Below, piece by piece: positions 2,010 to 27,379 of a DNA stretch of 64,000 nucleotides (the first letter of the stretch is position 1; every line of letters starts with the position of its first letter). The stretch comes from Alloascoidea hylecoeti (taxonomy: Eukaryota), in NCBI GenBank assembly GCA_001600815.1, contig BCKZ01000010.1, positions 681,506 through 745,505 of the forward strand, in the 5' to 3' direction. The position numbers were made by a program, and so were the translations under genes. The notes beneath the pieces were generated by a model. The model searched no databases, was not told the origin of the DNA, and saw only the letters and a program-made list of their open reading frames with translations.

Positions 2010-3138
2010 ATATAATTTTATGAATGCGACATTCTATTTTATTGATTAATCATAGGTTGCAATTGTATAGTATAACGGTTTTATTTATAATTAGTTCAAC
2101 ACAAAATCTCAAATATTAAATACAATACCAAATATAAAGTTAACCCATAATAATAAATCTCTACAAGTGCAATCGACACGCTTAATTATATTCGTACCGA
2201 CTATAATATAATGATGATTGACAGATAAATTGAATCCTATACATTACTGCCTAATTGTATTAAACTAGAGAAGTATATTTTATCATACGTTATGAGGTTT
2301 AAATGAAGTGTTAAAGTTGGGGCTAACATCACTAGAATTATTATTCCATCAACTTTCAATTTTTACATAATATTTAGTATAAACCTATATATTTACCCAT
2401 TTATTAAACCTAGTTGGTTGTTACCGAATTACTTAATAAATCCACATCCTTTCCCATTTTTACCATAGTATTTTCGGTTTGAGAATTGGTTAACGTCAAA
2501 AGTGATAATTCAGTGATTACGCTTTTGGGAACTAATTAAAATATTACTGGAAAGTTATTAAGTAATTTTAATACTTCGTACTTCTTTTTTACTATAGTAT
2601 GTAACATAAGACTCATAAGTAGTTTATAAGATATTTGTATTCATGCTCATTTTCCATTTAGTTACAGCGCTGAGAGTTATTAATTCTAATATTCAAAAAT
2701 TAATCAACGACCGATATGGAGTTATTTATTTTAGCGAGTTCATTCCGTAACAAGCAGAAAACATAAGCTTTAAACTCCTGCTGAATTTTTTAAAAATGAA
2801 TTCTATTGACACCCGGGCAATGAATAACTTGTTCCCAGTGGGGGGAATTATTTAGTCTATATTTGATACAAGAATATGTATACTAAAAGTATAATAAGCA
2901 TGTTGTGAATTTATAAAAGGTATATATAGACTCTATCTTAGGTGCTAGAAAGAAAGGTACGATTTCGGTATTGTGCTTTAAATTTGATAAATTTCATAAT
3001 TGGGTCTAGTGAGACGACTATATGTATAAATCAGCTAAATACTTATCAAAAATACACTGCAGCAGCTACAGCTATAGTATATCACCACTGATCAATCTCC
3101 GAACTGTAAAAAAGTCATCTTTTTAAATATACAATATA

Positions 3139-4064
3139 ATGCCCCCAGAATTCCATTAAGCGAGATTTCAGGTGATTCTAATTCTAATAAGCAAGTAAAA
3201 CCATATAAAAGAGTCAACATCTGTGACGTGAGTAAAAATGAATTGGTGAAATAGGCAGAAGGCTTAATGTTGCATTTTAACTGATGCTCACAGTAAAGTA
3301 TCCCAACAACTTTTCTAGCATAACGCCTGAAAGACACTTTCTAAAAGGGTAGTGAATGAAATCCTGAGAAATGTAAAGGTTCCCCCTTTAATATGCTCAA
3401 GGAGCTGGCTTCAATGTTCAACATTAGGACATCAAATACCGCCTAAGAACCTTCTGTAATTACAAAAATATATAATATTTCCATCATGTAATTGATCTTA
3501 TCTGAATAAGAAAAACCAGATGCATAGAATGGTACTACCTAATATAGATTGGAGTGGTCTCATGACTTTTGGGATGGTGTTGAATTTGGTGGCTAATGTT
3601 CGGTAGTACAGTATCCGGATTTAAAAACCTATATGATCAACAACACCCACACCAAGCCTTTGAAACAAAACATGCTCATAGTACAGGGAATTTTTGGTCT
3701 GTAAGTCTTATACTGTGGACTGAAATTTGGAAATGAGGCCGTGTTTCACTGTATAAGGTGGTTGGGGATCTTAATAGCAAAAAACTAAAAAATAGCCACC
3801 GGATGCTCCTACATAGAACTTCTGGAGAAAGCCTTTGGTAAGATTCATGAGGATCTCAAACTATATAGCAGGGTAGCAAACCTATCCATAAAGCAAAAAT
3901 CATGGTGAATTTCGTGGAAAGGAGATAGAGGTGATGGAGTGGCTATTTTTGTGCGGATCTCAACCCTTTGTAGCACATATAGAATCTCTTCATAAAAATT
4001 CATCAGATGTCAGGAATTGCGATTAGAAGCCCTTCATATGTAATAAAGGGGAATAAATATTTAA
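3139..4064 (+). mobile_element. Degenerate Tc1/mariner (DD34E-type) transposase remnant
   Basis: Frameshifted, stop-riddled fragments in the expected order: MP-RIPLSEISG (3139), YIELLEKAF (~3809), *QGSKPIHKAK (3866; QQDNAPxHxSK motif), IEVMEW..DLNPL*HI* (3925-3982; WPxxSPDLNPIEHxW), RLEAL..KG..KY (4020-4064). TIRs not identified. Confidence 0.7.
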
Positions 4065-6656
4065 TGTTTATGTCTCTTTCAAAATATTGATAATTCGTAG
4101 ATCAGGGTATAATCTGATTAACTCCATTTTCTTATGGTGGTAGCCGTTTATGGGATTAAGAGTTCCAACACTAACTATTATACTCAATTTCAATTTATAT
4201 AAACACACTAATATAATCTCTACAATTTATAGATCATTATGTACTATTTTAGGAACAATTTAGGGTGATCCGTGGCTGAATATAATGCTGTCAAAATCGT
4301 TCGGCTTTAGCATTTCCCGAAAATACCTAATGATATTAGGTGGAGAAACTGTAGATATCGGTTGGCGGGATAACACCGATTCCGGAACCGGAACCTGTAG
4401 CAGGCGCAGTTGAAAAAGGACTTCAGCTTTATTTGAAAAATATTTAAAAAGCTTAAGGAGTACGAATTGAAGAATTATGTTATAAAAGATTATTAGTTAT
4501 TTATAACTAATTGGCATTAAGTATTTCAAAGACTTAAAATAGGCTTATAAGTCACTTTAAAGTGATCGCAATTAGTTTATTAATAGAGTTGTAGATATAG
4601 CGCTATAGGATATAACTTATAGGATATTATTTAGCTAGGGCTCTATAAGCTTGTATATAGGCCTATAAACCTAATTGTAACCAGAATATCAAATTTATGC
4701 AATGAAATACACAATGTATTACAATGACTGCACAGCACCAAAAATACTTGCAATATTAATGTTCCACATTTTGCCTTCTTTCAACCTGTCTTAAATAGTT
4801 ATATAAGTACCCTTACTAGCAGTCTCAAATCTTCTTAGCTAAAACTTTATTCTCCTTAGCTAAAACTTTGTTCTTATTCTTTTCTTCTAGTCTCTCCTTT
4901 CTCGATTCATAGTCATTCTTTTATCTCTTCTATTGCTATCGCTATTATTTCAAAATATTTTAACTGCTGGGCCGTTAAAAACAATATCAAATTAAAATGT
5001 CTGTAAACATGTACAAATATAGATATAGGCATACTACTGACGCTAAAACAAAGATCATACCATTCATAAATATCAATAGTCATCATATTAAGAGTTCCAA
5101 AGTTCTATCGGTAACTCTTTCAGATGATAATAAATCTTCCTTCTCATCTGAAATAGAAGCTCACACTTTGCTGCCATTCTTAAAGATCGAAAATTATTGT
5201 CTTCAAAAATATCAGTTTTCTAAAGAGAGCCATTTATATTCGACTAAATCTTCTCTTTTGAATTTGAATATTCGATCCAGACGACCATATGCATTGATTA
5301 ATTCTTTCTTGGTTAAAGGGACTGTTATCAACAAATTTAAAAATTATGATCAATTGCTGAGAAGTAAAATTAATATTATGACACCGATATTAGTTCTCAT
5401 AGTCTTAACAACAGGATCTTTCGCTCTCTTACAATTGGGCTCTTATTATCTTATTTCTAGGCTTCAGTTATTAATGATACTAACAATTTATAACTGCCTA
5501 CTACCTATATAAAGGCAGAGATAAAATCAAATATTGAGGGTTAGCTTCTATTCTTCTTGAACTCACAATTGCAATAATTTGAGTTACTATATTTTTATTG
5601 GTTGATTACTATTTTAAATTTATATTCTTGCCTAAATATGCATATGAATATAACGATGCAATATTTTATCTTGCAATTGGCTTTAAACTTAGTTATCAAA
5701 CTCTATGTTATATGTAATATCTTATATTGGAGAGTTTTGCAATGAATTTATATTATTTCATCTAAAAATCAGGATTTTTAAATTCAAATATAAGTTATAA
5801 TAAATTCATCATTTTGAACCTTTCATATAAATTTACCACCGATAGAGAATTAACTTGCAAATAGCTATAGGTTATATACCATATGGTATATTCTTTTATT
5901 CTTTCACTGGCTATAATAAACTCTTTCTTTTTTAGCTCAATAAAGTGCATTGTACTGGTGACATATAATTTATATGGGGAAATTGTGCATATCTTCTTTT
6001 TGTCTATTTTCATATTTTACTTCTGTTTGTATTCTATATTGTCTTGAATGTCTTCCAATGACCAGGTAGTAGATATTTTACTTAGATAATTCTACTCCCG
6101 ATCCCTATAGACCTCCATTATACGAGTAGTTCGTGATTAGGTGGTGTTCACACATTATATTCTCAATTCTAACGTTAACGCCTTCACCATGAATTGAAAA
6201 GTTCTTTAAATTGAGGTCTCGGAAATCACTCCCAGAGTATAAAACCTCTTCTTCTTAATTTTTCTTTAACTATATATTCTGTTTTTCTTGTACTTATTTT
6301 TCTTTTTATCTTACCACCGTGTTTTTTTTTATACTTTTTCCGTTTGTGTTTATTATTAAATTCTTTATTCCGATAACTTGGTTTTCTAGTATTTTTTCAA
6401 TATAGTAATATTTTATAAATTTTGTTACATTCTTCAAAAATATGATAATCATTTAGGCAAAGACTACATGTACAAATATCTGTTTTGTGCCACCATTATT
6501 GCATTTTAATTTATATTAAAAATATGAGTTACGTTTCCTAAGCTGAAAAGGTGAAACCATTATGTTTCTTTTTTTTTTTTTTTTTTTAAGTTTTTATTCT
6601 TATATGAGCAGATAATCTAATTGAACCTGAATTGATATCGAAGGGCCAGAAAACAG

Positions 6657-12657: not shown

Positions 12658-12730
12658 CTTGAATATTCAGTTGTGTTGGTGATTTGAGGAAAGTGTGGGA
12701 CTAAACATGTTATAATAATTATCGCTCTAA

Positions 12731-12795: not shown

Positions 12796-13771
12796 ATGTC
12801 TGTAGACTCCAACACTTTTTTCACTTCCTTAGTGGTATGAAGTCTTATTGTAACGATAAATCAATCGCAAAGTAATAATAGTTATTGTCTAGAGTGGAGC
12901 TGCTGCTGGTACCGCCACAGATGTGGTCTTTTTCCCAATTGATACTGTTAAGACCCGTCTTCAAGCAAAAGGTGGCTTTTTTTTAAATGGTGGTTGGAAA
13001 GGGATTTATAAGGGAATTGGAAGTATAACTGTTGCTTCCGCTCCAAGTGGTATGTCTTTTGTTGTTTTTCGCTTGTTGGTTTTTGTTGTGATTGTTCTAA
13101 TGGAAATTATAGCCTCATTATTTTTCGTTACCTATGATTCTGCCAAAATCATACTTAAACCTATAATATCCAATCATATTAAAAACCAAAATCTAAGCGA
13201 TAGTATTACTCATATGATAAGCGCATCTTTAGGGGAAATTTCAGCGTGTTTTGTGCGTGTTCCCGCTGAAGTTATAAAACAGAGAACTCAAGCATTCAAA
13301 CATAATTCATCCCTGGACTCTTTGAAATCAATTCTTAAAAATGAAAATAAAGAAGGTATATTAAAAGGTTTATATAGAGGTTGGGGAATTACAATTATGA
13401 GAGAAATTCCTTTTACGATTATTGAATATCCATTATATGAGTATCTAAAAAAAGTTGTAGCTAAAAAATCCAACAAGGAAAAAGCAAGTCCTAGTCAAGG
13501 TGCTTTATGTGGTTCAATCGCTGGCGGTGTTGCCGCAGCTATAACAACTCCATTAGATGTAATTAAAACAAGAAAAATGTTACATAAAGATCAAATTTCT
13601 GTTTCCAAATTAGTTAGTAGTATTATTAAAGAAGAAGGTTATTCTTCATTTTGGAGAGGAATTGGTCCAAGAACAATGTGGATGAGCTTTGGTGGGGCTA
13701 TTTTCCTTGGTGTTTATGAAACCGTTTCAAGTTTTATTCCTAAACCAACTACATCAACAACCGCATTTTGA
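12796..13771 (+). CDS. SAM5: Mitochondrial S-adenosylmethionine carrier; exons 12796-12834, 12893-13049, 13113-13771
   Basis: Three carrier signatures (PIDTVKTRLQ, PAEVIKQR, PLDVIKTR), ASAPS(A)SLFF and REIPF. GTATGA..TAG and GTATGT..TAG introns restore the frame and N-terminus. S. cerevisiae alias PET8. Confidence 0.9.
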
Positions 13772-13850
13772 TTATAGAAATATATAAATAGATAACACTA
13801 AAATTTGTAAATAAGATGATAATAAAAAAGTTATAGACAGACTCATACTA

Positions 13851-13963
13851 ATTAACGAGCTGATATCATGATTTTTTTTACCAATTTGTTTCTTTCTAGC
13901 ATATTTTATTAACGAGCTGATATTATGATTTTTTTACCAATTTGTTTTTTTCTAGCATATTTT
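13851..13963. repeat. Tandem ~57-bp duplication of the DCC1 3' end
   Basis: 13851-13907 and 13908-13963 differ by two substitutions and one T indel. Confidence 0.9.
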
Positions 13964-14949
13964 ATTATAAAACTTTCAATTTTTATATTTCTTGTATTTA
14001 AATCCTTAACATATGGTATAATATCATCCAATTCCCAAGATGATTGTTCTTTAAATAAACGTTTAAATCTAATAACTGGATCTTTTGATAAATTTGATAT
14101 TGGGAAATATTGAATTTTATTTGGTAATGGTTGTGAATAGTAACCTCTTAATTGACTGATTTCAAATTTTGTTTTGAAAGTTGTTGGAATTAATTGTTTC
14201 CAACTTGTAATAAAATCTTTTTGTGAAATTAACGATGATGATGATAATTTTTTCAAAGCTTGAATACCATAGAATTTTGTAATTTTTTCAGAATTTAATT
14301 CAAATGGTTCAATTATTGTATTTGAAAAATATTTTAAAGTTGTTTGAATTAAATTTGAATCAAACTCAGAATCATTTATTATTGATATTATTTTATCAAT
14401 TGTTATATTTTTATATAATTCTCCTTCTTTACAATCTATTGTTGACGAAGCAGTTATAATTATATTTAATGATTCCATTAATAGATCCTGTGATAAAATA
14501 CATGATATTCCATTAAGTTCACATCCACCAACAGAAGCCCACAGTTGATCAAATTCTAAATCTGACATTGGGGAATTTTTCTTTAAAGTTGATAAGGAAG
14601 GTGTTTGATCAGTTAAAATATCATTAATACTGTTATATATTGGAATATCATTAATATTTAATTTTGGTGATATTTTAGTACATTCCAAAAGAAATTTTAT
14701 ATCTGTAAAAGCAAACATATCATTTTCATCATGTTTTTTAGTTAATAAAAGAGTATTGGTATGATGAACTTGTCTTAATTGAAAAGTTGAATCAGCAACA
14801 CATAAAACGGCGTCCGAATTCTCATCTGAGGCTTTTATAGAGATATCTTCAGTGACATTGTTTCCTTTCATCACCAGTTTCTGTAGTTCTGGAGTCAGTC
14901 GTAACAAATGATACCCTGTTTCTGGTTTCTGGGATAAATACAAGTCCAT
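13909..14949 (-). CDS. DCC1: Sister chromatid cohesion protein Dcc1 (Ctf18-RFC subunit)
   Basis: Y.LLRLTPEL, DAVLC..STFQLRQVHHTNTLLL, C-terminal DP..RFKRLF..W.LDDIIPYV...FIIKYAR. Likely start at MDLYLSQ. Confidence 0.9.
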   Translation of the reverse strand: MDLYLSQKPETGYHLLRLTPELQKLVMKGNNVTEDISIKASDENSDAVLCVADSTFQLRQVHHTNTLLLTKKHDENDMFAFTDIKFLLECTKISPKLNINDIPIYNSINDILTDQTPSLSTLKKNSPMSDLEFDQLWASVGGCELNGISCILSQDLLMESLNIIITASSTIDCKEGELYKNITIDKIISIINDSEFDSNLIQTTLKYFSNTIIEPFELNSEKITKFYGIQALKKLSSSSLISQKDFITSWKQLIPTTFKTKFEISQLRGYYSQPLPNKIQYFPISNLSKDPVIRFKRLFKEQSSWELDDIIPYVKDLNTRNIKIESFIIKYARKKQIGKKIIISAR

Positions 14950-15003
14950 GATGAAGAAGATGATGAGATGCAGTTGGTCAGAGAACAAACAATATTTATA
15001 ACC

Positions 15004-15011
15004 ATCACGTG
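15004..15011 (+). promoter_or_regulatory. Cbf1-type E-box ATCACGTG
   Basis: In the ~170-bp DCC1/BUD3 divergent promoter. The same motif occurs at 23203-23210 (minus strand) and 49457-49464. Confidence 0.45.
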
Positions 15012-15116
15012 CCATTGTTGTTGTATACCACAAGCGTAAATCCCAAATTTTAAATGTTTAGTCCTCGCAAATTAGCTAATTTTCCTTTTTTCTCCGAGCC
15101 TCTCCAGTCGATATTA

Positions 15117-18100
15117 ATGGAAGAAGAAACAGACTCCTGTGCCATCTCCGTCCCCCACCTGGCCGCCCCTGGGTCTGGAGTGTGGGAGAATGTGGCTTAT
15201 TATGTTGGAACGGACCCAATGTTTGGGAAAGTGATGGTCGTTTTATACCGACCTCAAGATTCCTCAAAATATTCCTCTGTTTTCTTATCTTCCCATGGCA
15301 TATCTCATTACAGAAATATAACAGTTGACCCCAGGTCAAGATACTATTTGGCCTGTCAAAACTTACCTGTTGAAATGGAACATGATGTTCGAAGATGTGC
15401 GTTAGCCATTACAGCTTTAAGAACTTATGCTTCTCTTCCACAGAATACAAAAGTTGCTCTAATCTCTTCTTCACAATCTCCAACTGGTTATCCTTTAACG
15501 TTTGATGAAACTTCAGCCGGAGATTTTGCTGCTACAATGAGATTAATACCAATCCATGAAAACCATTCTTCAATAACAACCGCTATGGAACAACTAGGAT
15601 TATTTCAAACTAAAAAAATAAACTCTGCAGTAATAGATGTTATATACTCAAATGAATCTAACGTTATTAATGATAATAATAATTTAGTTTTTTTATTAGG
15701 ACAGCAATTAGAACAATTATTTGATCCTTTAACTGAATATTCTCCAGAACCAACCGAAAAGTTATATGACCCACCATGTCCTGGTTCGCCTGACTCTTCA
15801 AATTCAACTCGTTCAACTGATTCTTTAGATTCTAATGTTGTTAGGGCAATTTGTAACGAGCTAGTTCAGGTTGAAGCAACTTTCACAAATAGTCTTGTTC
15901 TATTTCTACAAAATTTTATTGTTCCTTTACGTGTTTTTGTAATGAATAATAATAATAACAATAACAATACATTATTATCAATAACAAAGTTAAATTCAGT
16001 TTTCCCACCAACAATTGATGAAATTACGAGGATAAATTGTTTATTTTCTGAAGCTCTTGTTAAAGCTCAAAATTTTGGTTCTTTTGAAATTGTAAAAGCA
16101 TGTGGTATTACAATCCCTTATTTTTATAAAGCCTACATGAGACATGAAGCAGCTACTTTAGATTTTGGTGAAAAATTAAGAGAAATTTATCCTTTAATTC
16201 AACCATTTATGAATACTAATAGTAATACATTATCAGATTTAAATTCAGATTTAAAAATTGCAAATTATAGTATTGCTAAAATTGAATCTTTAATTCATAG
16301 TAGTTTAAATCTTGCAAGATTAAAATTAATTCTTGATCGTTTAATGAATGAAAAAGTTTGGTTACAAGAAGAAGAAGAATTAGTTTCAAAATATTACAGA
16401 TCTTCCGTTGGTACAATTGATGATTTTGCAACTCGTTCAACTGTTGATGATAGTTATAATAATAGAATTTTCACCCCAACTGGTAGTATATTACCTGAAT
16501 TAACAACTGATTGGCCTCCTGAACTTCAACATGGTTCAATATCAAGAAGAGTCGTTTCAATTGTTGATGTTGTTAATTTATTACCTGAAACTGATAACAA
16601 TTATAATAACATAACAAGAAAAAAACTTGATATTATTATTATTTTTACAGATAATGCTTTATTTTTAACAGTTGATGATAACGATTATATAAATAAACAT
16701 TTCTCACATTTTCATTATTCAAATTCTTTTAAATTATTTAAAGATAATAGCATGCATAGGCCAAGTATTGCAGATATGTTAATGCATTCTTTAGTTAATA
16801 AAGTACCTTTAAAAAATTTACCAAAATTAAGAGTTGAAGGTTGGTGTCCAATACAAGATATTTATGCTTCTGAATTTAATAATGGTTCTGGTTTACATTT
16901 ATTTGTTAAAGGAGAAGGTATAAGACAAACACAAATACAACAACAACAACAACAACAACAACCACAAAAATCATCAATTAATACACCTTATCTTCGACTT
17001 TATCAATTTAGTAATCCAAATAAATATAGTAATACATCACAATTTGTTGAATTAATTAATAAAGCAAAAGTTTTAAGTAAAACTCAACCATTACATTTAT
17101 TTCAAGAATCTTTCCCAGAACTTCATTTATTTTCAACAGCTCATGAAGTTTCAACATATTTAAAAGAAGAAAAAAAATTCCCTGTTGCAATTTTATTGAA
17201 TATGGAAATTAGTATGTCATTTCTAGAAGAAAATGATTTATTTGCTTGTTATTCAATATCATTTACAAATGAAGAATTAGATCAACCGCAACAAAACCAT
17301 CAATATCAAAATCGTCAAAATTATAGAAATGTCAAATTAATGGGATTAACAAAAGCAGGTAATATAACAAGAATGATTATTAAAAGTTCATCTTTACCAT
17401 TATGTTTATGTAAAGAAGTATCAAGAGCTTATTCATTATTTTTATCACAATTTAATGAAGGAATAGTTGATCAATATATTGAAATAAATAAATCAATTGT
17501 TGATTTTTTAAGTAATAAGTTAATTAATCATTTTGAATCAAATTCAAAAGTTTTTAAACCGAATCAACAACAACAACAACAATCTTCATCATCATCTGGT
17601 AGATCAATAAAATCATTTCATTCTCAATCTGGTTCTATTAATGTTTTACCTGTTGATTCAAATAGATCAAGTGTTCGTTTTGCTTCATCCATATTGCAAA
17701 ATAATACCAAACATAATTCAATTGGTATTGATCCTACAATGGCCCATAGTAGAATAAGTGTGCAATCATCAATTACTTCAACTTCTAAAAAAGAATCAGA
17801 GAAAAAACAACAGCATAGAAGATCAATTCCAATATTTGATAAAGTTAAAACATTCTTTCACAGATCATTATCACGTTCAAAACATAGTGGTAAAAACCAT
17901 AATAGAAATGGTAGATCTACTTCAGTTGGTGTTCAATCACTTTATATACCTAGCACTAGTGATGATTGTGATAATTCAGATGATAATGAAATTGCTCCTA
18001 CAAATTCATTAGAACATTATAAAAGAAAAAAAGATTCTGTTAGCTCATTACGATTAAAACCTGAAAAGAAAAGGGTAAAATCTGAATTAATGAATCCTTC

Positions 18101-19643
18101 TGGTCTAAGAAATGTGACTTTACCAAATACTTCTTTGAATTCTCAAGATGTAGGAAAAGAAACGTATAATATTAATATTAATAATAATCATAATAATAAT
18201 AATAATAATATAGCTCCTAGTATTTCTTTAAAAAAATCGATTTTACCTGGTGAAATCTCATCATCTAATAATAATAGCAACATGTTAATTGATGATGGAG
18301 CAACGATGCCTGAAGAACCAATTATTTCTGCACCGAATAATATTAACCTATCTCCAAACTTGGTTAAACCTTTGCTTGACCAAATACCTACTACTACCCC
18401 AGTTACACTTACTACCCCAGTTACTAATTCTCAAAGACCGTTAAGTCATTATACGAATGCTAGTGAACAAAGTTCAAAAAGTAATAAGAGTGATATTACT
18501 AGTCAAACTAGTTTGGATATGCCTAGCAGTTTTGTTGGTGCTGGTGATGGAAATACTACTGGTGGAACTCTGACACCTAAAAATCATCAAAGACACAAAT
18601 CTTCGGCTTCTAGTCAAGCATATGCTCATAAGCCTAGTTATTCGGTGGCTACTGAGACAGATAAATCTGCGACACCAAGTACCGTGCGTGGATCAAAAAT
18701 GATAGCTGCAACTTCCGCTAATAATAATAATGATGATGATGATGATGATAGTATTAAGGATATTTTTAAATATTCATCATATATTGAGGATAATAGCAAT
18801 GAAACAGCGACCAAGAATTTTGAAGTTTTAGCTTCAAGTACCGAAGAAGAAGTTGGGTTATACTTTAAAAATCATTCATCTTCATTCTTTGATGATGATT
18901 CTCCAGTGCAAAAAGTACATAAACATCCGAAAGAACGTCTTGATTTTAATAACAATAATGATGGTAGTGCAAATGAGGTAAACTCTAAGAACAGTAATGG
19001 CAATTATCCTTATGTCATATCAAGTTCATTATCTTCATTATCCGTTACTTATGATGAAACAATTTCAAGTCCAAGAAGCGATCATCAAAGAAGATTATTT
19101 GTTGGTTTAACATCTCCTGAAAATCAACCAAGAACAACTTCATCTCGCACAGCTGATTCTGATTCATTATGTGGAGATGATGCTGATGAATTCTTTGCAA
19201 CTGATTTACCTTCTTATAGGAAGAAAAATCAAATACTACCAGCAATGAAAATGAAAACAAGAACAAATGCTGGTACTGTTTCAGGAGTAAATGGAAATGC
19301 AGTGGCTACTGCAAATGATTACATGTCAACACGAAAATTCTCCGCGAACAGTTACCAATCTGGTAGTTCAGAATGGGTTACTGAATCTGAATATTCTAAT
19401 AGTGTTAAACCAAGTAGAAGTTCCCTTAATAATATCTTAAGAGATCCTAAATGTTCAACCCCAATATATGGTAGTTTTATGGACAGGAATAAAGCTCCAC
19501 AATTGACATCACAACAGCGGGAGAGTTTCAAGGAGAGTCCACAAGAAACAATTGATAGTGTTTTAACTGAGGATCCTATACTTAATTCTTATGAATACCT
19601 TATTGATGCAATGTCTAGATTTGATACGCATGAAAATATTTAA
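15117..19643 (+). CDS. BUD3: Bud site selection protein Bud3 (DH/RhoGEF-like domain)
   Basis: LLGQQLEQLFDPLTEYSPEPTE, DH-like EL..E..F...L..FLQNFIVPLR and FPPTIDEITRINC, long low-complexity C-terminus. Next to DCC1 as in S. cerevisiae. The start could also be 15054. Confidence 0.85.
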   Translation: MEEETDSCAISVPHLAAPGSGVWENVAYYVGTDPMFGKVMVVLYRPQDSSKYSSVFLSSHGISHYRNITVDPRSRYYLACQNLPVEMEHDVRRCALAITALRTYASLPQNTKVALISSSQSPTGYPLTFDETSAGDFAATMRLIPIHENHSSITTAMEQLGLFQTKKINSAVIDVIYSNESNVINDNNNLVFLLGQQLEQLFDPLTEYSPEPTEKLYDPPCPGSPDSSNSTRSTDSLDSNVVRAICNELVQVEATFTNSLVLFLQNFIVPLRVFVMNNNNNNNNTLLSITKLNSVFPPTIDEITRINCLFSEALVKAQNFGSFEIVKACGITIPYFYKAYMRHEAATLDFGEKLREIYPLIQPFMNTNSNTLSDLNSDLKIANYSIAKIESLIHSSLNLARLKLILDRLMNEKVWLQEEEELVSKYYRSSVGTIDDFATRSTVDDSYNNRIFTPTGSILPELTTDWPPELQHGSISRRVVSIVDVVNLLPETDNNYNNITRKKLDIIIIFTDNALFLTVDDNDYINKHFSHFHYSNSFKLFKDNSMHRPSIADMLMHSLVNKVPLKNLPKLRVEGWCPIQDIYASEFNNGSGLHLFVKGEGIRQTQIQQQQQQQQPQKSSINTPYLRLYQFSNPNKYSNTSQFVELINKAKVLSKTQPLHLFQESFPELHLFSTAHEVSTYLKEEKKFPVAILLNMEISMSFLEENDLFACYSISFTNEELDQPQQNHQYQNRQNYRNVKLMGLTKAGNITRMIIKSSSLPLCLCKEVSRAYSLFLSQFNEGIVDQYIEINKSIVDFLSNKLINHFESNSKVFKPNQQQQQQSSSSSGRSIKSFHSQSGSINVLPVDSNRSSVRFASSILQNNTKHNSIGIDPTMAHSRISVQSSITSTSKKESEKKQQHRRSIPIFDKVKTFFHRSLSRSKHSGKNHNRNGRSTSVGVQSLYIPSTSDDCDNSDDNEIAPTNSLEHYKRKKDSVSSLRLKPEKKRVKSELMNPSGLRNVTLPNTSLNSQDVGKETYNININNNHNNNNNNIAPSISLKKSILPGEISSSNNNSNMLIDDGATMPEEPIISAPNNINLSPNLVKPLLDQIPTTTPVTLTTPVTNSQRPLSHYTNASEQSSKSNKSDITSQTSLDMPSSFVGAGDGNTTGGTLTPKNHQRHKSSASSQAYAHKPSYSVATETDKSATPSTVRGSKMIAATSANNNNDDDDDDSIKDIFKYSSYIEDNSNETATKNFEVLASSTEEEVGLYFKNHSSSFFDDDSPVQKVHKHPKERLDFNNNNDGSANEVNSKNSNGNYPYVISSSLSSLSVTYDETISSPRSDHQRRLFVGLTSPENQPRTTSSRTADSDSLCGDDADEFFATDLPSYRKKNQILPAMKMKTRTNAGTVSGVNGNAVATANDYMSTRKFSANSYQSGSSEWVTESEYSNSVKPSRSSLNNILRDPKCSTPIYGSFMDRNKAPQLTSQQRESFKESPQETIDSVLTEDPILNSYEYLIDAMSRFDTHENI

Positions 19644-21526
19644 ATGATTTGGCTATGGTCTCTACAAGTTATACGTGAACTACTTGTGTTACAAAACATT
19701 TTTAACAATTTTTTTTCTTTTGTTTCTCTCCATATATTCCCAATCTTTTGATCTTGATATTTTGCCTTTCGCTCTTTCGATGTTTTAAAAAAGTTATTTG
19801 CAAACAAAAATATAAAATGTCTTCTTTTTTTCTCTTTTTTCTTTTGATTTTAAACAAGTTAGGGGGTTGAATTTTCATGCTACTGTTTTTTTCTGCTTTC
19901 CAGCTGGTTTATAGTCTATATATTGTTTGTTAATTATTTTGGTTTTGTGATTATTTTATAATATATGCTTTAGTTTTTCTTATTATATTCGATATGTTAT
20001 GCATACATTTATATAAATACTCCCTATGTTTTGTTTAAATTTACTTTACATTTATTTCAGATTATGAGTCTGTAGTACTTTGTACTCTTCCATCTAGTAT
20101 ATTTTCTTCATTCAATGGCCTTAAACTTTATAATAAACTGTCCCATTTCTTCTATATGTTCTTCTTTTGTATTGATGATCAGCTCTTTAATTCTTACTCT
20201 ATCTGGGCTGATCATGATTTTCTTTGGGATCTGGATTATATTAATCTTCCTTTGTATGAGCTATATGTATTATTGTCATTTGTGTCGATTAAAAAGTAAT
20301 TCTATGTAAAGAGTAGTAGGAAAAAAATTCAGAATAACTATAATCAACCCCCGATGAAAATGAATAAGAGAAAAATAATACTAATGATCAAAAAATAAAC
20401 AAAAACTCAGATATAAGTGAATATCTAACATCAGCAAGAGAATTAGATTTTATGGGCTTGTGAGTATACACTGGGGATTACTGTTTAAGGAAGGTCCCAG
20501 TATTTAAGTGAAATACAGTATGGACTCCACCACATTCCTATGAACAGTTTATCGATTAACACTTAAGCGTGGCCGGTCTTAAACTGTCGACTACAAGTGT
20601 ACAACTACATCTAGATCTAGCTGGACTTAACTAATCATGCAGTAATCACCACTAAAGTTACCCTGATCACCTACATCTTATTATGATTATGAAAATTGAG
20701 TAGTAACAGCAACAATATATAATTATGCTTGACAGGTCTCAATATATTTGTAATTAGTTGTCCAGATAAACTTATTCTAATAGTCTAATAGAGACTTCTA
20801 GATTAATGATCTACCACCCCTTCTTATTTTTTATGATCAAAATTCTTTAATTCTGCTATTCATATGACATTAATACTTGAATTGGAGTTGTTGATGTTGT
20901 TTTCTTCTAATTGTTGGAATTAAGATCTAAATTACTTGATACTACAACATCATTTGCGAAAAATGTTGTGCATGCAATTGCAACGACATCAAGACATAAT
21001 ACGTATTATATAGCAATTTTAAAGCCAACAACAACGAATTAATATAAAATTATAATCATAATCAAATACTTAGAATAATCATTAATTATAGGCCAAGAAC
21101 TTGTATGTTTATGACATGTTCTGCATTATTATATTCAAAGGAGTTGTTAAATCTGCATAAATATCTAATTCCGTTCCCCATACCGTATAATTATACATTA
21201 TTATATATTAAATTTATAATAATATAACATCACTGACTCCTTTTTTTTACTGTCCTTCTAGGTTTTCCTCGTCAATACATTTTACAAAAATCCCGTTAAT
21301 TCCTTTCGTTTCATTATTCTCAAAAACGTCGATTAAATAATCTGTTTATCATCTTAAAGAGGTTTATATTCAAGTGGGAAGAGCATTAGTATCTATTTGT
21401 CGCGCCTTAGCTCTTACCATCTACATATTGAAAATACAACTAGAATAAAAATTGTTCCAAATTTACTAATTTCGGTTCCCTCGCTAACTTCTCCCAAATC
21501 AAACGACTTCAAATAAAATCAGAGAA

Positions 21527-22150
21527 ATGTCATTTTTTAAAGGTTATGAAAAGAGTGAGTATTATTTTTATAAAATACTTGTACCCATCATTCATATTTA
21601 TGCGTATGAAAACTATATCTATAGTAGATGTATTTCTTTCTTTTAGTACAAAGTTTTAACAATATTAGTATTAAATAATTTAGGGCATCGAAGAAAGAAT
21701 AAGAGAAATAATAGAGAAAAACATCAAAGTCAAATTGTTTATTCATCGTTAGAACCATCGGGTCCAACAAGCCCAGCAAGTGCACCAGTTCGATATAGTT
21801 ATCAAAAGCATGATAGAAGTAGACTTAGCTTTTTCTCAGATATGAATATGGGTCTGTCATCTCGTGCTTTTGATCTAACTGTACATAATTTAGATGATAA
21901 TGAAACGCGGATGGGATTAGATGAAAGTTCAAAAGAAGGGATTTTAGAAATTATGAAGAATAGAAAAGATTTATCTTTTGATGATGCGCGACTATTATAT
22001 ATAATGAGAAAGATGTATGAAAATGGAATAGGTAAGTTAATTTCACATTTATGTTTATAAATCTAGGTTTGCTAATGATTTATTTTATTTTAATGTATAG
22101 CACCAGATGGAACACCAATGGACCCTAGAGCAGTCTGCTTTAGTACTTAA
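21527..22150 (+). CDS. DUF2015/UPF0357 protein (YCL012C-like); probable exons 21527-21554, 21684-22031, 22101-22150
   Basis: SFFSDMNMGLSSRAFDL...RMGLD...EIMK..LSFDDARLLY...NGI|APDGTPMDPRAVCFS after removing a GTAAGT..GCTAAT..TAG intron (22032-22100). The 5' exon structure is uncertain. Confidence 0.75.
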
Positions 22151-22549
22151 TGATAATTAATTTATATAACTTCACAATGAACTGAACTACAAATACCAGT
22201 TAATAATAATATGATATATGATCAAATTAATTAATATACTTTTTGTTCAAATCACAGATTATGGCATTTAATAAATATACTTCTTTTAATAAATGATAAG
22301 CCATAAGTAAAAAAAAAAAAAAAAAAAAAAAAGAAAGGAAAATATAGGTGTATGTGTAATTATATAAATATCGGTAAATCAACTTTTATAGTGGTACAAA
22401 TGGAGAAAAAAAAATATTGATAGATTATACATTAAATCTTCAATTCAAAATATATTATCATTATTACTATTATCGTTGCTTCTTTCTTTCTTTGATTGTG
22501 GCCGTGTAACATTGATTGATTGAATATAACCTTATATTATATTAATTAA

Positions 22550-23119
22550 TTATTTACTTTGCTTCTTTCCATATTTTGTCTTTCCAATATCAAAGGGAAG
22601 ATACTTATATTTTATCATATGTTCAATTTGTTTCCTTAAAGTAGCCGTTAATAAAATAATGAAATAAATCAATAAAATTGGCCAAAAGACTGGAATATCA
22701 CAAGCTGGAATAAATGCACAAACCAATGAAATAGTAATAGCTCTTATACCCCGATACCAAAATTTAAACTCAGGTAATCTTCTAATAAATGGACGGAATT
22801 CATCATCTTCATTTGTTGGTAAACCTTCTTCAATTTCAGCATCTTTTGTCTCTTGTTCTAAAACAGGATTGAACTTTGGTTGTAAAAATGCCAAGAATAA
22901 ACTTAGAAGATAGATTGCCAATATATAACAAACAATATACCACCCTTGTGCCAATATAATTCTTAGCATAAACAAAGAAAATAAAACACCAAAACTGACC
23001 CATCTATAGAGCATAAATGGTGTAGTTTTATCTAAATAGCCTTGATAGATCATTTGAATATGCTGGACTCGTTTGGAGATTCCATCGAACGGAGTGGGGG
23101 ATTCGTCCATAGCATCCAT
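22550..23119 (-). CDS. RER1: Golgi-to-ER retrieval receptor Rer1
   Basis: YQ.YLDKTTP, EFRPFIRRLPEFKFW, DIPVFWPILLIYF, HMIKYKYLPFDIGK. Confidence 0.97.
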   Translation of the reverse strand: MDAMDESPTPFDGISKRVQHIQMIYQGYLDKTTPFMLYRWVSFGVLFSLFMLRIILAQGWYIVCYILAIYLLSLFLAFLQPKFNPVLEQETKDAEIEEGLPTNEDDEFRPFIRRLPEFKFWYRGIRAITISLVCAFIPACDIPVFWPILLIYFIILLTATLRKQIEHMIKYKYLPFDIGKTKYGKKQSK

Positions 23120-23285
23120 TTTTGTTTGTTGTAAGAGTGATAAAATCAGCAGTATAGAAATGTAAAATAACCGAAGTGGCAGAAACTAAAAAATACCAGT
23201 GACACGTGATCAATTGATGTTTGGATGTTTTACAAACCTCTTTTTTTACAAATCTTCTCCAATTTTCAAGACCTTTGGAAAAGTA

Positions 23286-24509
23286 ATGTCAGCGTTAGGA
23301 AATCTTTCTCGTGCTTCTCGTGCTGTATCTGGTTTACTGGGCTCAAGCACATTAGTGGCTTCTCAGAAATGTCAGACTGTTTCGATTCTTTCATTTGTTA
23401 GAGGTGCTCATAAGAAAGTTTCTGGTACCTCGAATAACGGCCATAATTCAGCTGGTAGACGTCTCGGTGTGAAAAGAAGTGATGGTATGTTTTTTGCTTG
23501 TTTGTTTATTGAAAGCTTTGTTTACTGATATTATATCCATACAGGACAACAGGTTAAGGCTGGTGAAATCATCGTTAGACAGAGAGGTACAAAGTTGTTC
23601 CCTGGAGAAAATGTGTCAATTGGTAGAGATCATACAATTTTTGCAAATGAGCCAGGTTTTGTTCAATTTTACTTTGATCCTTTCCATCCAAAGAGAAGAC
23701 TTGTTGGAATTGCATTAAGGAAAGATATTAGATTACCACTTCCCCATTGGGAACCAAGAGTTCGAAGATTTGGACATGTTTTACTTGCAGATCCAGTTGA
23801 AAGCAAAAGAGAAATGGATCATATGTCAAGAAAAGAATACCTTGCAACACCTATAATCAAACAAGCGGAAGAAAAAAGAGCCGCAGATAGAGAAGTTAGA
23901 AAAAATAAATGGGCTGAAATTGTACCAAAAATTATAGATCTTCAAGGTGAGGAATTAAATGTTGCTATTAATCGTTTAATTTCTGTCCGTGCTTTCTTGA
24001 GTGGTGGTCGCTCAATTAAAGAGTCAAGAGATCTCACTACTTTTAATTTTACATATGATTTAACTTTAGCTACTCAAAGAGGAGAAATTGCAAAAGAAGT
24101 TGCTGAAAAACAGAAATCTGAATATCTTCAAGTAGCTGAAAAGGTTGACGCGACAACTACTTTTGATTCTCGGTTCCGATTATACAAATCTATTCCAAGT
24201 GATCAAAAAAGACAAAAAGTTACCAAAATTCTGGCAAAGATTGATGAATTATACAAACAACCCACTTTCTCAACATCAGAAACACGGGCTCAAATAGCTG
24301 CATTGATTCATTCAGGATTAATTGATATGCCATTGCGTGTTAAATTAATTAGAAAATATTTGAAGAGATCACCTTCGTTAGAGAGAGATGATGAGATTAC
24401 ACCTTCCAGTAAACAGAAAGAGGTTACAATCAAAAGCTGGAATTATGAGAAGAAGAAGTTGGAAATTATCAAAAGACCATCTGGTGTGTTTCCCCCAGCA
24501 AGTAAATAG
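23286..24509 (+). CDS. MRP7: Mitochondrial ribosomal protein bL27m; exons 23286-23484, 23545-24509
   Basis: Presequence followed by [57 protein letters not shown]; 60-nt GTATGT..TACTGAT..CAG intron. Confidence 0.93.
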
Positions 24510-24593
24510 TATGGTGGAACAGGAACAGGAAGCTTAATTTAAACTATACCAATTGTAAATACAGGATAATAAATATATATAGTTGTATATGCA

Positions 24594-25064
24594 TTATCTC
24601 ACATTAGAGGTTTCATTTTCTTTCCATGTTGACGAGCCGTCCCCATACTCTTCACTTTTCCAAATCTCCGCTTTTTTCTTGATTTCTTCTAATATCCAAG
24701 TAGCAGCAGCCCATCCTTCTTCGCGATGTGTAGCGGTTAATGCAATAATGATACTTTCTTCTCCAACAGGAACCACGCCCAATCGGTGGCCAATTGATAT
24801 TTTGTGTATCTTCTTATTCAATGGAATATCCGTGAACTTTTGCGTCGCCTCAGAAGCAATCCTAGAGAAAGTTTTCAAGGCCATTTTCCTATGGGCTTCA
24901 TATGATAACGAAATGACAGTTTTACTATCAAAAGAATCACGGGTAGTACCTCCGAAATAGATCACCGCACCTGCGCTGTTTTCTCTCACAAAACGCAGGG
25001 CATGTAAAGGGTCCAGAGGATCTTCAGTGAGATAAAGATCAAAGTTTTCAATGCTCCGGCTCAT
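24594..25064 (-). CDS. MOCS2: Molybdopterin synthase catalytic (large) subunit, MoaE/CnxH
   Basis: GAVIYFGGTTRDSF, LSYEAH, HRLGVVPVGEESI, HREEG, EIKKKAEIWKSE. Confidence 0.93.
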   Translation of the reverse strand: MSRSIENFDLYLTEDPLDPLHALRFVRENSAGAVIYFGGTTRDSFDSKTVISLSYEAHRKMALKTFSRIASEATQKFTDIPLNKKIHKISIGHRLGVVPVGEESIIIALTATHREEGWAAATWILEEIKKKAEIWKSEEYGDGSSTWKENETSNVR

Positions 25065-25651
25065 TTGGAGGTACTATACTTATATTATATGCTACTATGT
25101 ATGATGGCATAACAGGAGTATGTGCTGCTACAGTTATGGCATATGCGCAGCGCCCGGCAGTGGAATATATTATTTTAGTCCCACTCACACCTTTTCTTCC
25201 GATAAAAGCATCATCGCGTGTAATATTATCAAAAAAGGGTATGTTGAGCAGAAAATTAAGTGTGACAGGGCTCGGAGAAAATTGAAGAATTTGAAGAAAG
25301 ATTTTATGAAAGAGAGTGATTATTAATGGGGTGGATGGGTATTGAGACAATGATGAGTGTTGTGATGAACTGTTTTGCTGAACCTCTTTGTTTATAAGGA
25401 AGCTTACAAGCATAAAACTTATTTGGGATGGCGGAAGAAACATCAAGAGCACATTATAATGGGCTAAATGACTGGACGTTCTTTAACTTGAAATTTGCTG
25501 ACTTTTCTACATCTCACATCTCAATTCGCATTCACTGCAAATTGTTTAAACAAGCACAGTTCATTTCTCTTTTTTTCACCCCAATCTCACCATTCAACTG
25601 AGACTAATATGTCATTAGTGTTTTTGACCATATATATACCATACGGAGATA

Positions 25652-27379
25652 ATGTGTAAGTTGGAGTAGTTAGATCTGGTCTCACCCTTTACGGAATTAA
25701 AATGCTAATGTTGGTAATTTTATAACAGCTGATTATTCAAGAGATGTATGTTTATGAATTGTTTTCCATTTATTGAGCTTTTCTCAATTCACCCAATTGA
25801 TATTGCAATTGAGTTTAACAACTCTTTATAGAGAGATTCAAGGAGTACTTTCAGAGATAGATCTCCAGGAAGAAGGGGATATAGTCGATCTCCTCCCCCA
25901 AGAGATTCTTCAAGACATCGTTCAAGATCTCCAAGAAGATCATTTGGTGCACCTTATCGTGATGACAGACAAGGAGGTGGTGATCAAGACACTCGCGTTT
26001 ACGTTGGGAATTTGGCTTACTCCGTCAGATGGTCTGACCTAAAAGATCATTTTAGACAAGGTTGGTATTCAACTATTCATACTATGATAGTTCATCTTAT
26101 ATTAACATTTTATTCATAATAATAGCTGGTGAAGTTGTTCATGCTGATGTTTTGAAAAATTTCGAAGGAAGATCTAAGGTAAGAAATTTAAAAAATGAAA
26201 AAAAAAAAAGATTAAATATTTCTGAGCAATGCTAACAGTTTATTATCATTAGGGATGCGGGTATGTTTTTAAAGTAACGAAAAAACAATTGAAGGGAAAC
26301 TCAAGTTTCTAATATCATATCTTATAAATAGTATTGTCGAATTTGCAAACTCCGCTGATGCTAGAAGAGCTGTAGAAACTCTCACCAATACCGACCTTTT
26401 AGGCCGTTCAATCTTTGTCCGTGAGGTAGGTTTAATTTAACGTCTATTAATCAAAAAAAAAAAAAAAAAAAATATCATCATATTAACTATTTTGACATAG
26501 GATCGTGTTGGTTCGCGTGGCCCACCACCACCTTCCTACCGAGGAAGAGGACCTCCACCGGGTGGCCCCCCAGGAGGTGGTTTCAGAGGACCTCCAAGAG
26601 AAAGAGGTTCACAATTATTTGTTGGAAATCTTCCATTCAATGTTGGTTGGAGAGAATTAAAGGATTTATTCCGAGATGCAGGAGAGGTTGCCCGTGCCGA
26701 TGTTAAGACTTTATATAATGGTAGATCTAAAGGTAATGGTATAGTTGCGTTTGAAACTGCCGCAGATGCTAGAGTTGCCATTGAAAGATTTAATGGTTAT
26801 AACTGGATGGGTAGAAGAATTGAAGTCCGTGAGGATAGATTCAGTGATGCTCCTCCTCGTGGTTTCCATCCTCCACCAGGATCTTTTCCTCCAAGAGAAA
26901 GACGACCTCCTAATGCTTTCACTGATGGTGTCACCGGTAACGGAGAACCTGGTCAAATAATATTTGTAGGAAATCTACCTTGGACAACTACAAATCAAGA
27001 TTTATTGGAATTATTTGAAACTGTTGGTCAAGTTGAACGTGCTGAAATACAATTTGAACCATATGGAAGATCTTCTGGAAATGGTGTTGTTAAATTTGAT
27101 ACACAAGAAACAGCTGAATTAGCAATTAGCAAGTTTTCAGCTTATGTTTATGGTAATCGTCCACTTAATTTATCCTATGCTCAATACGCAAATATTGATG
27201 GTCCATCTCGTGATCAACCACCACCATTTGCTAATAATGCTGCTCCTGTTGCTCCTACCCAAGCACCTGCCTTTTCATCTGGGACTGTTACTGATCCAAT
27301 GCAATCAGCATCCTCTGCATCTGCCGAATTTGGCGATAATCATGCTAATAATAACATGAATGATATTGAATTAAGCTAG
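25652..27379 (+). CDS. GBP2: SR-like three-RRM mRNA-binding protein Gbp2/Hrb1; exons 25652-25655, 25729-25745, 25832-26060, 26126-26178, 26253-26260, 26332-26425, 26501-27379
   Basis: RS/RD-rich N-terminus; RRMs VYVGNLAYSVRWSDLKDHF, LFVGNLPFNVGWRELKDLF, IFVGNLPW. Six GT-AG introns keep the frame and rebuild SKGCGIVEF. Confidence 0.88.

Follow-up and report, generated by a model that had tools for sequence, protein, structure and literature searches.

With a probability that we put at about 0.6, the 64,000-nucleotide stretch of contig C10 analysed here (the window) carries an ancient gene block that exists twice through segmental duplication, and it contains no centromere. The duplication took place at the DNA level, within this lineage and long ago, and reciprocal gene loss followed. 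The gene cluster in the window is real: all eight genes of a sequence-only reading were found at the coordinates which that reading had given, by Pfam profiles and by spliced models that are free of stops and hold 11 introns in total. Their domains, in gene order, are Mito_carr, Dcc1, Bud3_N with PH_BUD3_C, DUF2015, Rer1, Ribosomal_L27 with L27_C, MoaE, and RRM. The series begins with a PET8/SAM5-like mitochondrial carrier (12796..13771, + strand; two introns in the spliced model, 12835-12892 and 13050-13112), whose product is 50-57% identical to the DCC1-adjacent carrier of seven yeast loci. It continues with the single-exon DCC1 (13909..14949, -; Pfam Dcc1 E 1e-61), for which the start codon was identified, and with BUD3 (15117..19643, +), recognized by Pfam, homologues, and trees. 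Beyond an intergenic gap of 1,883 bp (19644..21526; about 30% GC), the largest within the block, lie a YCL012C-like DUF2015 gene (21527..22150, +; introns 21555-21683 and 22032-22100), RER1 (22550..23119, -), MRP7/bL27m (23286..24509, +; one intron, 23485-23544), the modelled MOCS2B/MoaE gene for the molybdopterin synthase large subunit (24594..25064, -), and GBP2/HRB1 (25652..27379, +; seven exons, six introns).

The claim that seven genes linked to CEN3 and CEN14 cluster here, interrupted by MOCS2B only, is thus borne out by domains, gene models, and the count of seven in eight consecutive genes. Named homologues support the orthology of Bud3, Rer1, and Mrp7; that of the others is based on a best PDB match to HRB1 together with syntenic matches in other yeasts for GBP2, and on such syntenic matches for PET8, DCC1, and YCL012C. 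In the section of the gene table for the pre-WGD Saccharomycetales ancestor that covers this region (Gordon et al. 2009 supplement, PMC2675101), the ancestral centromere Anc_CEN1 follows Anc_1.418, and the seven genes fall within Anc_1.404-417, to its left (PET8 404, DCC1 405, BUD3 406, YCL012C 407, GBP2 408, MRP7 410, RER1 417); MOCS2B is absent from rows Anc_1.381-445. Other block genes adjoin BUD3 in 10 of 13 yeast metagenome loci, the orientations PET8(+), DCC1(-), and BUD3(+) recur in four of them (L117, L118, L120, and L121), and ancestor table and metagenome loci agree on ancient synteny with the left flank of Anc_CEN1. By a rough calculation with an assumed ancestral gene number, seven of eight genes would fall within about 15 ancestral genes by chance with a probability of 6e-13 per window. 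The neighborhood had been described as shuffled, which holds for RER1, MRP7, and GBP2; it is less so than claimed, with 404-405-406-407 intact in ancestral order. Genes of the other flank (DOM34, CDC10, MRPL32, CIT1, SSL1, and ILV1) are not near the block and lie on C6, C15/C5, and C4, and ATO-ADP1 stands about 160 kb from the block on C10.

A second, collinear copy of the block lies on contig C21. In a comparison of 277 kb of C10 with 160 kb of C21, four paralogue pairs at 45-67% identity occur in the same order and relative orientation, with no further close collinear pair: BUD3 (C21 16.4-20.5 kb), YCL012C (near 15.5 kb; 54% over 70 amino acids), RER1 (14.4-15.0 kb; 60%), and GBP2 (8.5-9.9 kb), which has all six intron positions and phases in common with its C10 paralogue. 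Silent sites between the copies are near-saturated, four-fold sites being 0.37-0.49 identical against 0.30-0.40 expected. Beyond the genes retained on both contigs, C10 keeps PET8, DCC1, and MRP7, no copy of which was found on C21, and C21 keeps NFS1, LEU2, PGS1, SGF29, and a YCL002C-like gene. LEU2-NFS1 adjoin BUD3 there, SGF29 is single in the genome by profile search, and the adjacency PGS1-SGF29-GBP2 is common to C21 and two Scheffersomyces/Debaryomyces-like loci. In trees, the two Bud3 copies (protein P0122 is that of C21) are sisters with support of 100/100, and their lineage falls outside both Dipodascales and Pichiomycetes plus Saccharomycetes; grouping both with one Dipodascales Bud3 gives p-AU 1e-5. 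The free tree does not pair the Rer1 copies as sisters, although their sisterhood is not rejected (p-AU 0.33). The yeast orders that read CUG as Ser or Ala do not fit: at 13 CTG positions neither is ever the commonest residue, and the five in near-invariant columns align with Leu (0.91-1.0).

We find it hardly credible that the second copy is foreign (a contaminating contig, a recent hybrid haplotype, or a horizontal transfer) or an assembly artefact. The unlike GC3 of the BUD3 copies (0.12 on C10, 0.29-0.49 on C21) and the failure of trees to settle the relationship of the Rer1 copies would suit such an origin. Against it, GC3 changes smoothly along position; the C21 genes SET1, ORC6, SIS1, and STP22 are each without a further copy at the DNA level, nor has SGF29 a second one by profile search; the Bud3 copies are sisters; both Bud3 and both Rer1 proteins occur also on other, shorter contigs in the protein collection; and 89-100% of the sampled words are present in each of four runs, which come from three studies and two of which may be the source, for words taken from 19-28.5 kb of the window. 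A whole-genome duplication (WGD), auto- or allopolyploid, ancient and unreported in this lineage, is a possible but unsupported source of the C10/C21 pair, and we regard it as doubtful. Reciprocal loss would be expected of it. Some genes that are normally single occur in pairs of comparable divergence (RPC34 60%, CDC10 70-72%, CDC3 57%), the genome measures 24.8 Mb, and the order with the best fit to the tree position, Alloascoideales, has the top mean genome size (24.15 Mb) and gene-family size (1.49). The published survey confined its synteny test to assemblies of high contiguity and says nothing of Alloascoideales in its text. However, none of the RPC34, CDC10, and CDC3 pairs (0 of 3) has common neighbors within 20-30 kb, DNA searches with two other blocks gave no sister region, paralogues of the remaining window genes are scattered over different contigs, and the Anc_2.30-41 block on C10 appears nearly unfractionated; with about 4% of the genome read, 0 of 4 other DNA queries brought up a sister block. 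A 400-species reconciliation, which may not have included this species, reported spikes only in Saccharomycetales and Dipodascales. Since the lineage lies outside Dipodascales, any such event would not be WGD2-4. In the preferred reading, LEU2-NFS1-PET8-DCC1-BUD3-YCL012C together with RER1, PGS1, SGF29, MRP7, and GBP2 would have been inherited from the common ancestor with Pichiomycetes and Saccharomycetes and since held together with local inversions, and the event would have been a segmental duplication of about 15-25 kb, although RPC34, CDC10, and CDC3, also duplicated (57-72% identity), speak against a single one. The window copy would now lie in ordinary gene-dense arm sequence that has no centromere. 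Because the block is present twice, at most one copy need still be centromere-linked if both once were; if either is, it would be the C21 copy, which adjoins a copia-filled assembly break.

The proposal that the centromere of this chromosome lies in or near the window, with which transposon and LTR debris was said to be consistent, found no backing: the window has ordinary GC3, small gaps within the block, none of the genome's 50 matches to RVT_2 (copia reverse transcriptase), no tblastn hit from copia ORFs, and no kilobase inverted repeat around a gene-free core, the longest arms being simple repeat of 75 nt. About 30 transposon-derived ORFs of other parts of the genome were compared with the window, and only two, both from one remnant, match it, at 3.7-4.1 kb. 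This dispersed debris (3108..4127), which we take from its motif to be Tc1/mariner-like, is not an LTR element and has copies of about 68% identity on other contigs. A decayed multi-copy repeat (47001..48100) has 63-81% identical copies on many contigs, mostly in interiors; window repeats recur widely. Nor does the block form a GC3 trough, ranking 32nd lowest of 93 six-gene windows sampled from the final 297 kb of C10, which is 799 kb long. A C10 centromere in the block or within about 30 kb of it, for example in the BUD3-YCL012C gap or just past GBP2, seems unlikely to us. In its favor are the published conservation of centromere positions over about 200-250 Myr, a mild dip in the six-gene window from BUD3 to ARMH3 (GC3 0.115, 5th lowest of 93), a bulk GC that reaches its minimum for the window (0.19) at 32-34 kb, and the position of the 1.9-kb gap two genes from RER1. 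Essentially single copy (its only other genome match is 68 bp) and with no ORF over 86 codons, this gap is the only room in the block for a small regional centromere, the other gaps being 84-587 bp; it stays a candidate because a centromere that is small and regional, or defined by sequence, would escape the methods used. On the other side stand the lack of a gene desert, the nearness of the neighbors of RER1 (399 and 166 bp), the dispersal of the other CEN1 flank (DOM34 on C6, CDC10-MRPL32 on C15, citrate synthase and SSL1 on C4), and the lowest GC3 on sampled C10, at 589-613 kb, about 75-100 kb upstream of the block and beside the remains of a copia element that carry a 183-bp, 99% inverted repeat. 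Conserved order by itself decides little: seven Pfam-supported genes span Anc_2.30-2.41 at C10 766-786 kb, 13 of 20 genes at C21 31-73 kb come from Anc_2.128-154, and within the window MLS1 and DMA (54804..57755, +; Pfam) are adjacent as Anc_2.156-157, the gene names and chromosome-interior positions of these controls, and the systematic names of that pair, being our assumption. Equally long non-centromeric ancestral blocks survive here, so that conserved synteny is in itself no evidence of a centromere.

Better centromere candidates than the window are the C21 start and the C4 end. An orthologue of Anc_CEN1 may survive in an unassembled gap at the C21 start, which might connect to the C4 or C7 end, a tentative idea that is compatible with the duplicated block and by which centromere linkage would predate the Pichiomycetes-Saccharomycetes ancestor. 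The first 7 kb of C21 consist of inverted repeats and remains of copia elements, and GBP2-SGF29-PGS1-RER1 come immediately next. C4 terminates in inverted repeats and copia debris behind citrate synthase, ERG26, ILV1, and SSL1 (1,388-1,402 kb; GC3 0.04-0.11 in four genes); in Phaffomycetales, SSL1 and ILV1 lie beside CEN1 on the side away from RER1, and ERG26 flanks ancestral CEN4. C7 ends with copia debris and LST8-RFX1 (Anc_1.399-400), LST8 presumably being correctly named from its N-terminus. Yet the copia cluster at the C21 start resembles many contig ends, where GC3 is high: copia debris lies at at least 11 contig ends read, three of the 11 with Anc_CEN1-region genes; of the 10 pieces of the region that were located, four are no more than 50 kb from an end (p ~0.12 on a rough 20% background); and genes within 30 kb of copia ends are GC3-richer (median 0.24, n=61, against 0.18, n=167), much like the telomere-proximal GC3 rise of C. 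albicans (Lynch 2010). There is no sequence match between C21 start and C4 end, and the linkage was not found in Blastobotrys.

That the Anc_CEN1 neighborhood is still centromere-linked via C21, toward the SSL1/ILV1/citrate-synthase end of C4, and that an unreported large-scale or whole-genome duplication also occurred, is as a joint reading very improbable; in this lineage (probably Alloascoideales), which split before the Pichiomycetes-Saccharomycetes ancestor, duplication would then have been followed by loss of the centromere from the window copy. That at least one of C21 linkage and WGD is true comes somewhat short of even odds. If true, they would make the inherited centromere position older than the bound of 247-311 Myr in the literature and bring the ancient WGDs of yeasts to five. 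Conserved pericentromeric order being published, the cluster itself is what one more species should show, and the Anc_CEN1-flank block now extends to a lineage outside the range of shown centromere linkage. The C21 start, C4 end, C10 589-620 kb, and C24 start are candidate sites for dating that position, and an old duplicated block with reciprocal loss, together with unusually large gene families, makes a genome-wide WGD screen worthwhile.

Conservation of centromere-linked neighborhoods is established in the literature (Haase et al. 2026, PMC13017519; Hession et al. 2025, PMC12711049): the neighbors of point centromeres have remained linked for 200-250 Myr in different yeast orders, linkage groups at centromeres exceed the rest in size (KS P=0.0161), and RER1 lies directly beside CEN1 in three Phaffomycetales species. 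Those blocks are tied to mapped or Ty5-inferred centromeres within Pichiomycetes and Saccharomycetes, unlike the window copy, at which none is shown; the same studies found no linkage in one Dipodascales species, whereas the present yeast branches outside Pichiomycetes and Saccharomycetes. Compared with the regional centromeres of Scheffersomyces, Ogataea, and Komagataella, built on Ty5 clusters or inverted repeats, the window has neither feature, whereas the C21 start and C4 end are likewise copia-dense with inverted repeats, and these adjoin centromere-linked genes as they do there; the C21 family is known only as copia. Post-WGD sister regions (Saccharomycetales WGD; Dipodascales WGD2-4, David et al. 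2025, PMC12424943) likewise comprise two collinear copies, with retained pairs and reciprocal loss against outgroup order, but here only one such block was found. Set against the Anc_CEN1 portion of the ancestor table, the present genome has DOM34, CDC10-MRPL32, citrate synthase, and RPC34 away from the block, on other contigs. Within its rows Anc_1.402-418 the genes are the same, window and C21 jointly covering all nine of Anc_1.402-410 as well as 415, 417, and probably 416; here, however, RER1 adjoins YCL012C, MRP7 and GBP2 are reordered, MOCS2B is inserted, introns are more numerous, and the block is divided between two old paralogous copies.

Eight genes occupy window 12,796-27,379: a mitochondrial carrier (+), DCC1 (-), BUD3 (+), a DUF2015 gene (+), RER1 (-), MRP7 (+), MOCS2B (-), and a three-RRM gene (+). 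Their spliced models contain 11 introns across the block and are free of internal stops; named homologues back the identities of Bud3, Rer1, and Mrp7, and the top PDB match of the RRM protein is HRB1. Immediately 5' of the carrier gene (PET8) are two long ORFs (window 9,025-10,653 and 11,410-12,666), both without a Pfam family. The block was compared with the reconstructed Saccharomycetales ancestor by matching common gene names to the systematic names of Anc_1.402-418. In the accessible portion of the ancestor table (Gordon et al. 2009; PMC2675101), Anc_1.402 to 410 are YCL018W, YCL017C, YNL003C, YCL016C, YCL014W, YCL012C, YCL011C/YNL004W, YCL010C, and YNL005C, respectively, and Anc_1.415 to 418 are YCL004W, YCL002C, YCL001W, and YNL001W; the available text of Hession (2025; PMC12711049) places the centromere after Anc_1.418. 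Written in ancestral numbers, the window order is 404, 405, 406, 407, 417, 410, MOCS2B, 408. Seven of eight consecutive genes from one ancestral region (chance about 6e-13 per window, a rough estimate) is far beyond chance. The clustering of PET8, DCC1, BUD3, YCL012C, RER1, MRP7, and GBP2/HRB1, interrupted by MOCS2B, that the sequence-only reading described is thus confirmed as a set of Anc_1.404-417 genes, and synteny with the flank of Anc_CEN1, the ancestor of S. cerevisiae CEN3 and CEN14, is supported. That reading held that the neighborhood had persisted but was shuffled: persistence stands, whereas shuffling begins only after 404-405-406-407, which keep their ancestral order.

The block is widespread among yeasts. 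Gene adjacency was judged from locus tags and metagenome loci, in place of accession-level adjacency. A scan of metagenomes with a Bud3 alignment gave 13 loci, and in 10 of them BUD3 is adjoined by other block genes. For instance, two Scheffersomyces/Debaryomyces-like loci read PGS1-SGF29-GBP2-(YCL012C)-BUD3-LEU2-NFS1-PET8-DCC1, and PET8-DCC1-BUD3 occurs in four loci with proteins nearest the Saccharomycetaceae type. Block neighbors of BUD3 are missing from the other three loci. Two of these are <8 kb, and in the remaining one, whose nearest match is a Dipodascales-clade protein, 10 kb of upstream sequence contains none of the block genes. Locus tags separate BUD3 from MRP7 by six loci in Candida boidinii and by four steps in two Lachancea species. 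A Dipodascales-clade Bud3 (P0131) and an Mrp7 (P0261) are encoded on contigs that both measure 10,369 bases and are probably identical. As a counter-case, Sugiyamaella and Scheffersomyces coipomensis each carry RER1 and BUD3 on contigs that differ in length.

A second copy of the block lies at the start of contig C21. The first 7 kb consist of copia reverse transcriptase (RT) remnants and are followed, in order, by GBP2, SGF29, PGS1, a PQ-loop-like gene, RER1, YCL012C, BUD3, NFS1, LEU2, and a SAT4-like kinase. The PQ-loop-like gene is probably YCL002C; a 28-residue piece of the exon matched the PQ-loop family with E 3e-4, short of its cut-off, and an ESM Atlas search with the exon returned no informative match, so the name is assigned by position. 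Comparison of all ORFs in C10:521-799 kb with C21:1-160 kb recovered four collinear pairs (identities: BUD3 45%, YCL012C 54%, RER1 60%, GBP2 67%) and, beyond these, weak kinase-family matches only. PET8, DCC1, and MRP7 are confined to C10, and NFS1, LEU2, PGS1, and SGF29 to C21; jointly, the two copies restore every gene of Anc_1.402-410. The GBP2 copies have all six introns in common (6/6), with four-fold sites near saturation, and the Bud3 copies are sisters (branches 0.51 and 0.56, stem 0.33). The Rer1 copies are not sisters in the unconstrained tree, although sisterhood is not rejected (p-AU 0.33). Taken together, the collinear pairs, common introns, near-saturated sites, and sister Bud3 proteins show an old duplication within the lineage at the DNA level, followed by reciprocal gene loss.

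Several further features of these regions were recorded. The C21 GBP2 model (C21:8.5-9.9 kb, L004) has an AAG acceptor at three of six introns; the window copy has TAG. GC3 drops strongly from 5' to 3' in C21 BUD3 (L005/L006; 0.49 to 0.29) and in a kinase on C10 (L058/L059; 0.26 in the 5' part, 0.02 in the 3' part), and such falls within long genes add noise to GC3 profiles. SIS1, CBF5, and STP22 lie at C21:53-58 kb, and CBF5 fragments with 75-90% DNA identity, probably pseudogenes, occur at C34:109-110 kb, C50:4 kb, and C24:44 kb.

The window is C10:681,506-745,505 of an assembly of 24.8 Mb in 136 contigs, and CTG codons align with Leu. In unrooted Bud3 trees, built from the first 850 residues of 36 and 18 of the 120 matches listed, the lineage branches with Dipodascales on one side and Pichiomycetes+Saccharomycetes on the other (support 100/100 and 100/99), and a rooted Rer1 tree places it outside Lipomycetales. 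Membership of the Dipodascales WGD2-4 clades is rejected by the Bud3 trees, which include one Dipodascales sequence, with no named Geotrichum or Magnusiomyces among the matches. We infer that Alloascoideales is the order best fitting this position and the genome size; in the accessible part of a recent preprint (bioRxiv 10.1101/2024.06.05.597512), it has a mean genome of 24.15 Mb and a gene-family size of 1.49, the top of 12 orders. The DNA read also encodes a set of at least five GH45 endoglucanase-like enzymes, one bearing a CBM1 domain, and a GH28 polygalacturonase (sites: window 59,571-60,362; L011:6,644-7,960; L078:1,249-2,595; C13:166 kb; C34:39 kb; L025:5,819-7,273), and a wood-decay metagenome run contains DNA of this genome.

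An origin of the C10/C21 pair in whole-genome duplication (WGD) appears unlikely. RPC34 (C19:46 kb and C2:1,484 kb), CDC10 (C15:498 kb and C5:424 kb), and CDC3 (C3:1,124 kb and C23:35 kb) are likewise doubled, with old second copies, and gene families are large in the probable order, Alloascoideales, as a WGD could explain. However, neighbors are shared within 20-30 kb at 0/3 of these pairs, so that sister blocks around them were rejected; four more DNA queries found no sister block; and DOM34, SUP45, SSL1, and SGF29 are each single. Paralogues of MLS1, DMA, SCS2, ACK1, YET, PRS, and VID27 were also placed by DNA search. The accessible text of David et al. (2025; PMC12424943) reports new WGDs in Dipodascales only, from a synteny test limited to highly contiguous assemblies. 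On the roughly 4% of the genome that was read, we favor segmental duplication over WGD. The genome has about 11 septin loci, which, with the doubled CDC10 and CDC3 and the two BUD3 copies, suggests that septin and bud-site machinery is expanded.

Conservation of the block does not locate a centromere. Blocks distant from any ancestral centromere are also conserved here: C10:766-786 kb carries SSB, PTP1, BRE4, MFG1, VID27, IES2, and GYP7, with ends corresponding to Anc_2.41 and 2.30; 13 of 20 genes at C21:31-73 kb are drawn from Anc_2.128-154; and the MLS1-DMA pair within the window is Anc_2.156-157. Because such blocks are kept as well, the seven-gene block alone is no pointer to a centromere in this genome. 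That a C10 centromere, perhaps a small one, lies in or near the window is improbable, and we found no copia RT, large inverted repeat, gene desert, or GC3 minimum there to support it. All 50 genome matches to RVT_2 (the Pfam copia RT domain) fall outside the window, the closest of them at C10:619.6 kb; a Pol remnant occurs near 797 kb, where C10 ends. Repeats at window 3.1-4.1, 47.0-48.1, and 58.6-58.9 kb are dispersed over many contigs, and inverted repeats in the window amount to nothing beyond simple sequence. Neighboring genes of the block are separated by 84-587 bp, apart from BUD3 and YCL012C, which have 1,883 bp between them; a multi-copy LTR in this longer gap was rejected, as the gap has a single 68-bp match elsewhere in the genome and is essentially single copy. 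GC3 of the block (0.139; median of all windows 0.153) is the 32nd lowest among 93 windows on the sampled part of C10, where the minimum is at C10:589-613 kb; a shifted window, BUD3-ARMH3, reaches 0.115 (fifth of 93). Further, genes of the opposite CEN1 flank are scattered (DOM34 on C6, CDC10-MRPL32 on C15, RPC34 on C19 and C2, LST8-RFX1 at the C7 end); ATO-ADP1 is on C10, about 160 kb upstream of the block. A tRNA-like gene at window 6,657-6,753, whose anticodon received no assignment, recurs on C7 and at C10:616 kb with 95-99% identity.

Candidate centromere sites lie elsewhere. One is C10:589-621 kb (L058-L061), an alternative candidate for C10: it has the lowest GC3 on sampled C10 (several genes at 0.02-0.07), beside an ORF-poor stretch that contains a copia remnant and a 183-bp inverted repeat at 99%. 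Another is C24:1-26,000 (L022-L024), the clearest GC3 trough observed, with 11 consecutive ORFs at 0.04-0.14, against 0.2-0.28 past 26 kb, and no copia RT at the contig start. Its genes, named from Pfam families, are SUA7, RNH202, ESS1, APE2, RAD18, and VPS34, for which we know of no centromere linkage. A join of the C21 and C24 starts, to which an APE2 paralogue at C24:5 kb had pointed, was rejected, as the other C24 genes are unrelated to the window.

The Anc_CEN1 centromere may lie in a gap joining the end of C4 to the start of C21, but this is doubtful. C4 carries SSL1 with ILV1, ERG26, and a citrate synthase gene in low-GC3 DNA; inverted repeats and copia debris fill the contig end, which is some 25 kb away. 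A C4-gap-C21 join would restore the layout SSL1-CEN-RER1; in the available text of Hession (2025; PMC12711049), CEN1 lies between RER1 and SSL1 in three Phaffomycetales species, with ILV1 farther on the SSL1 side. ERG26 is a flank of ancestral CEN4 in the accessible part of Haase et al. (2026; PMC13017519). At C4:1,427,148-1,434,447 (L111), a perfect 573-bp inverted repeat has the same 176-codon ORF outward in each arm, and nested inverted repeats and copia debris continue to the contig end. However, copia debris marks at least 11 contig ends, only three with Anc_CEN1-region genes, and the end-proximity of Anc_CEN1-region pieces is not significant (4/10, p about 0.12). Genes <30 kb from copia-marked ends have GC3 of 0.24, against 0.18 in the interior (genes not independent), unlike centromeric troughs and like telomere-proximal DNA of C. 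albicans (Lynch 2010; PMC2997560); thus, many such ends may be subtelomeric rather than centromeric. An overlap search of the C4 end against the C21 start found no joining sequence.

The old duplication of the block was unanticipated by the sequence-only reading, and we found no printed account of it. Our search, with most subscription papers outside its reach, returned no published report of the block, its duplication, a centromere map, or WGD in this lineage, and the accessible part of Coughlan (2016) has no synteny statement. Linkage of this kind has been described elsewhere. In the available text of Haase et al. (2026; PMC13017519), Saccharomycetales centromere-linked genes have kept their linkage with Ty5-cluster centromeres for about 250 Myr, and the accessible part of the Haase preprint describes Blastobotrys aristatus as lacking the linkage, with shared ancestry dated at 247-311 Myr. 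Hession et al. (2025; PMC12711049), as far as its text is available, describes centromere location as conserved while structure changes. Since conservation of centromere-linked genes is already published, the cluster in Alloascoidea hylecoeti adds one more case to an established pattern.
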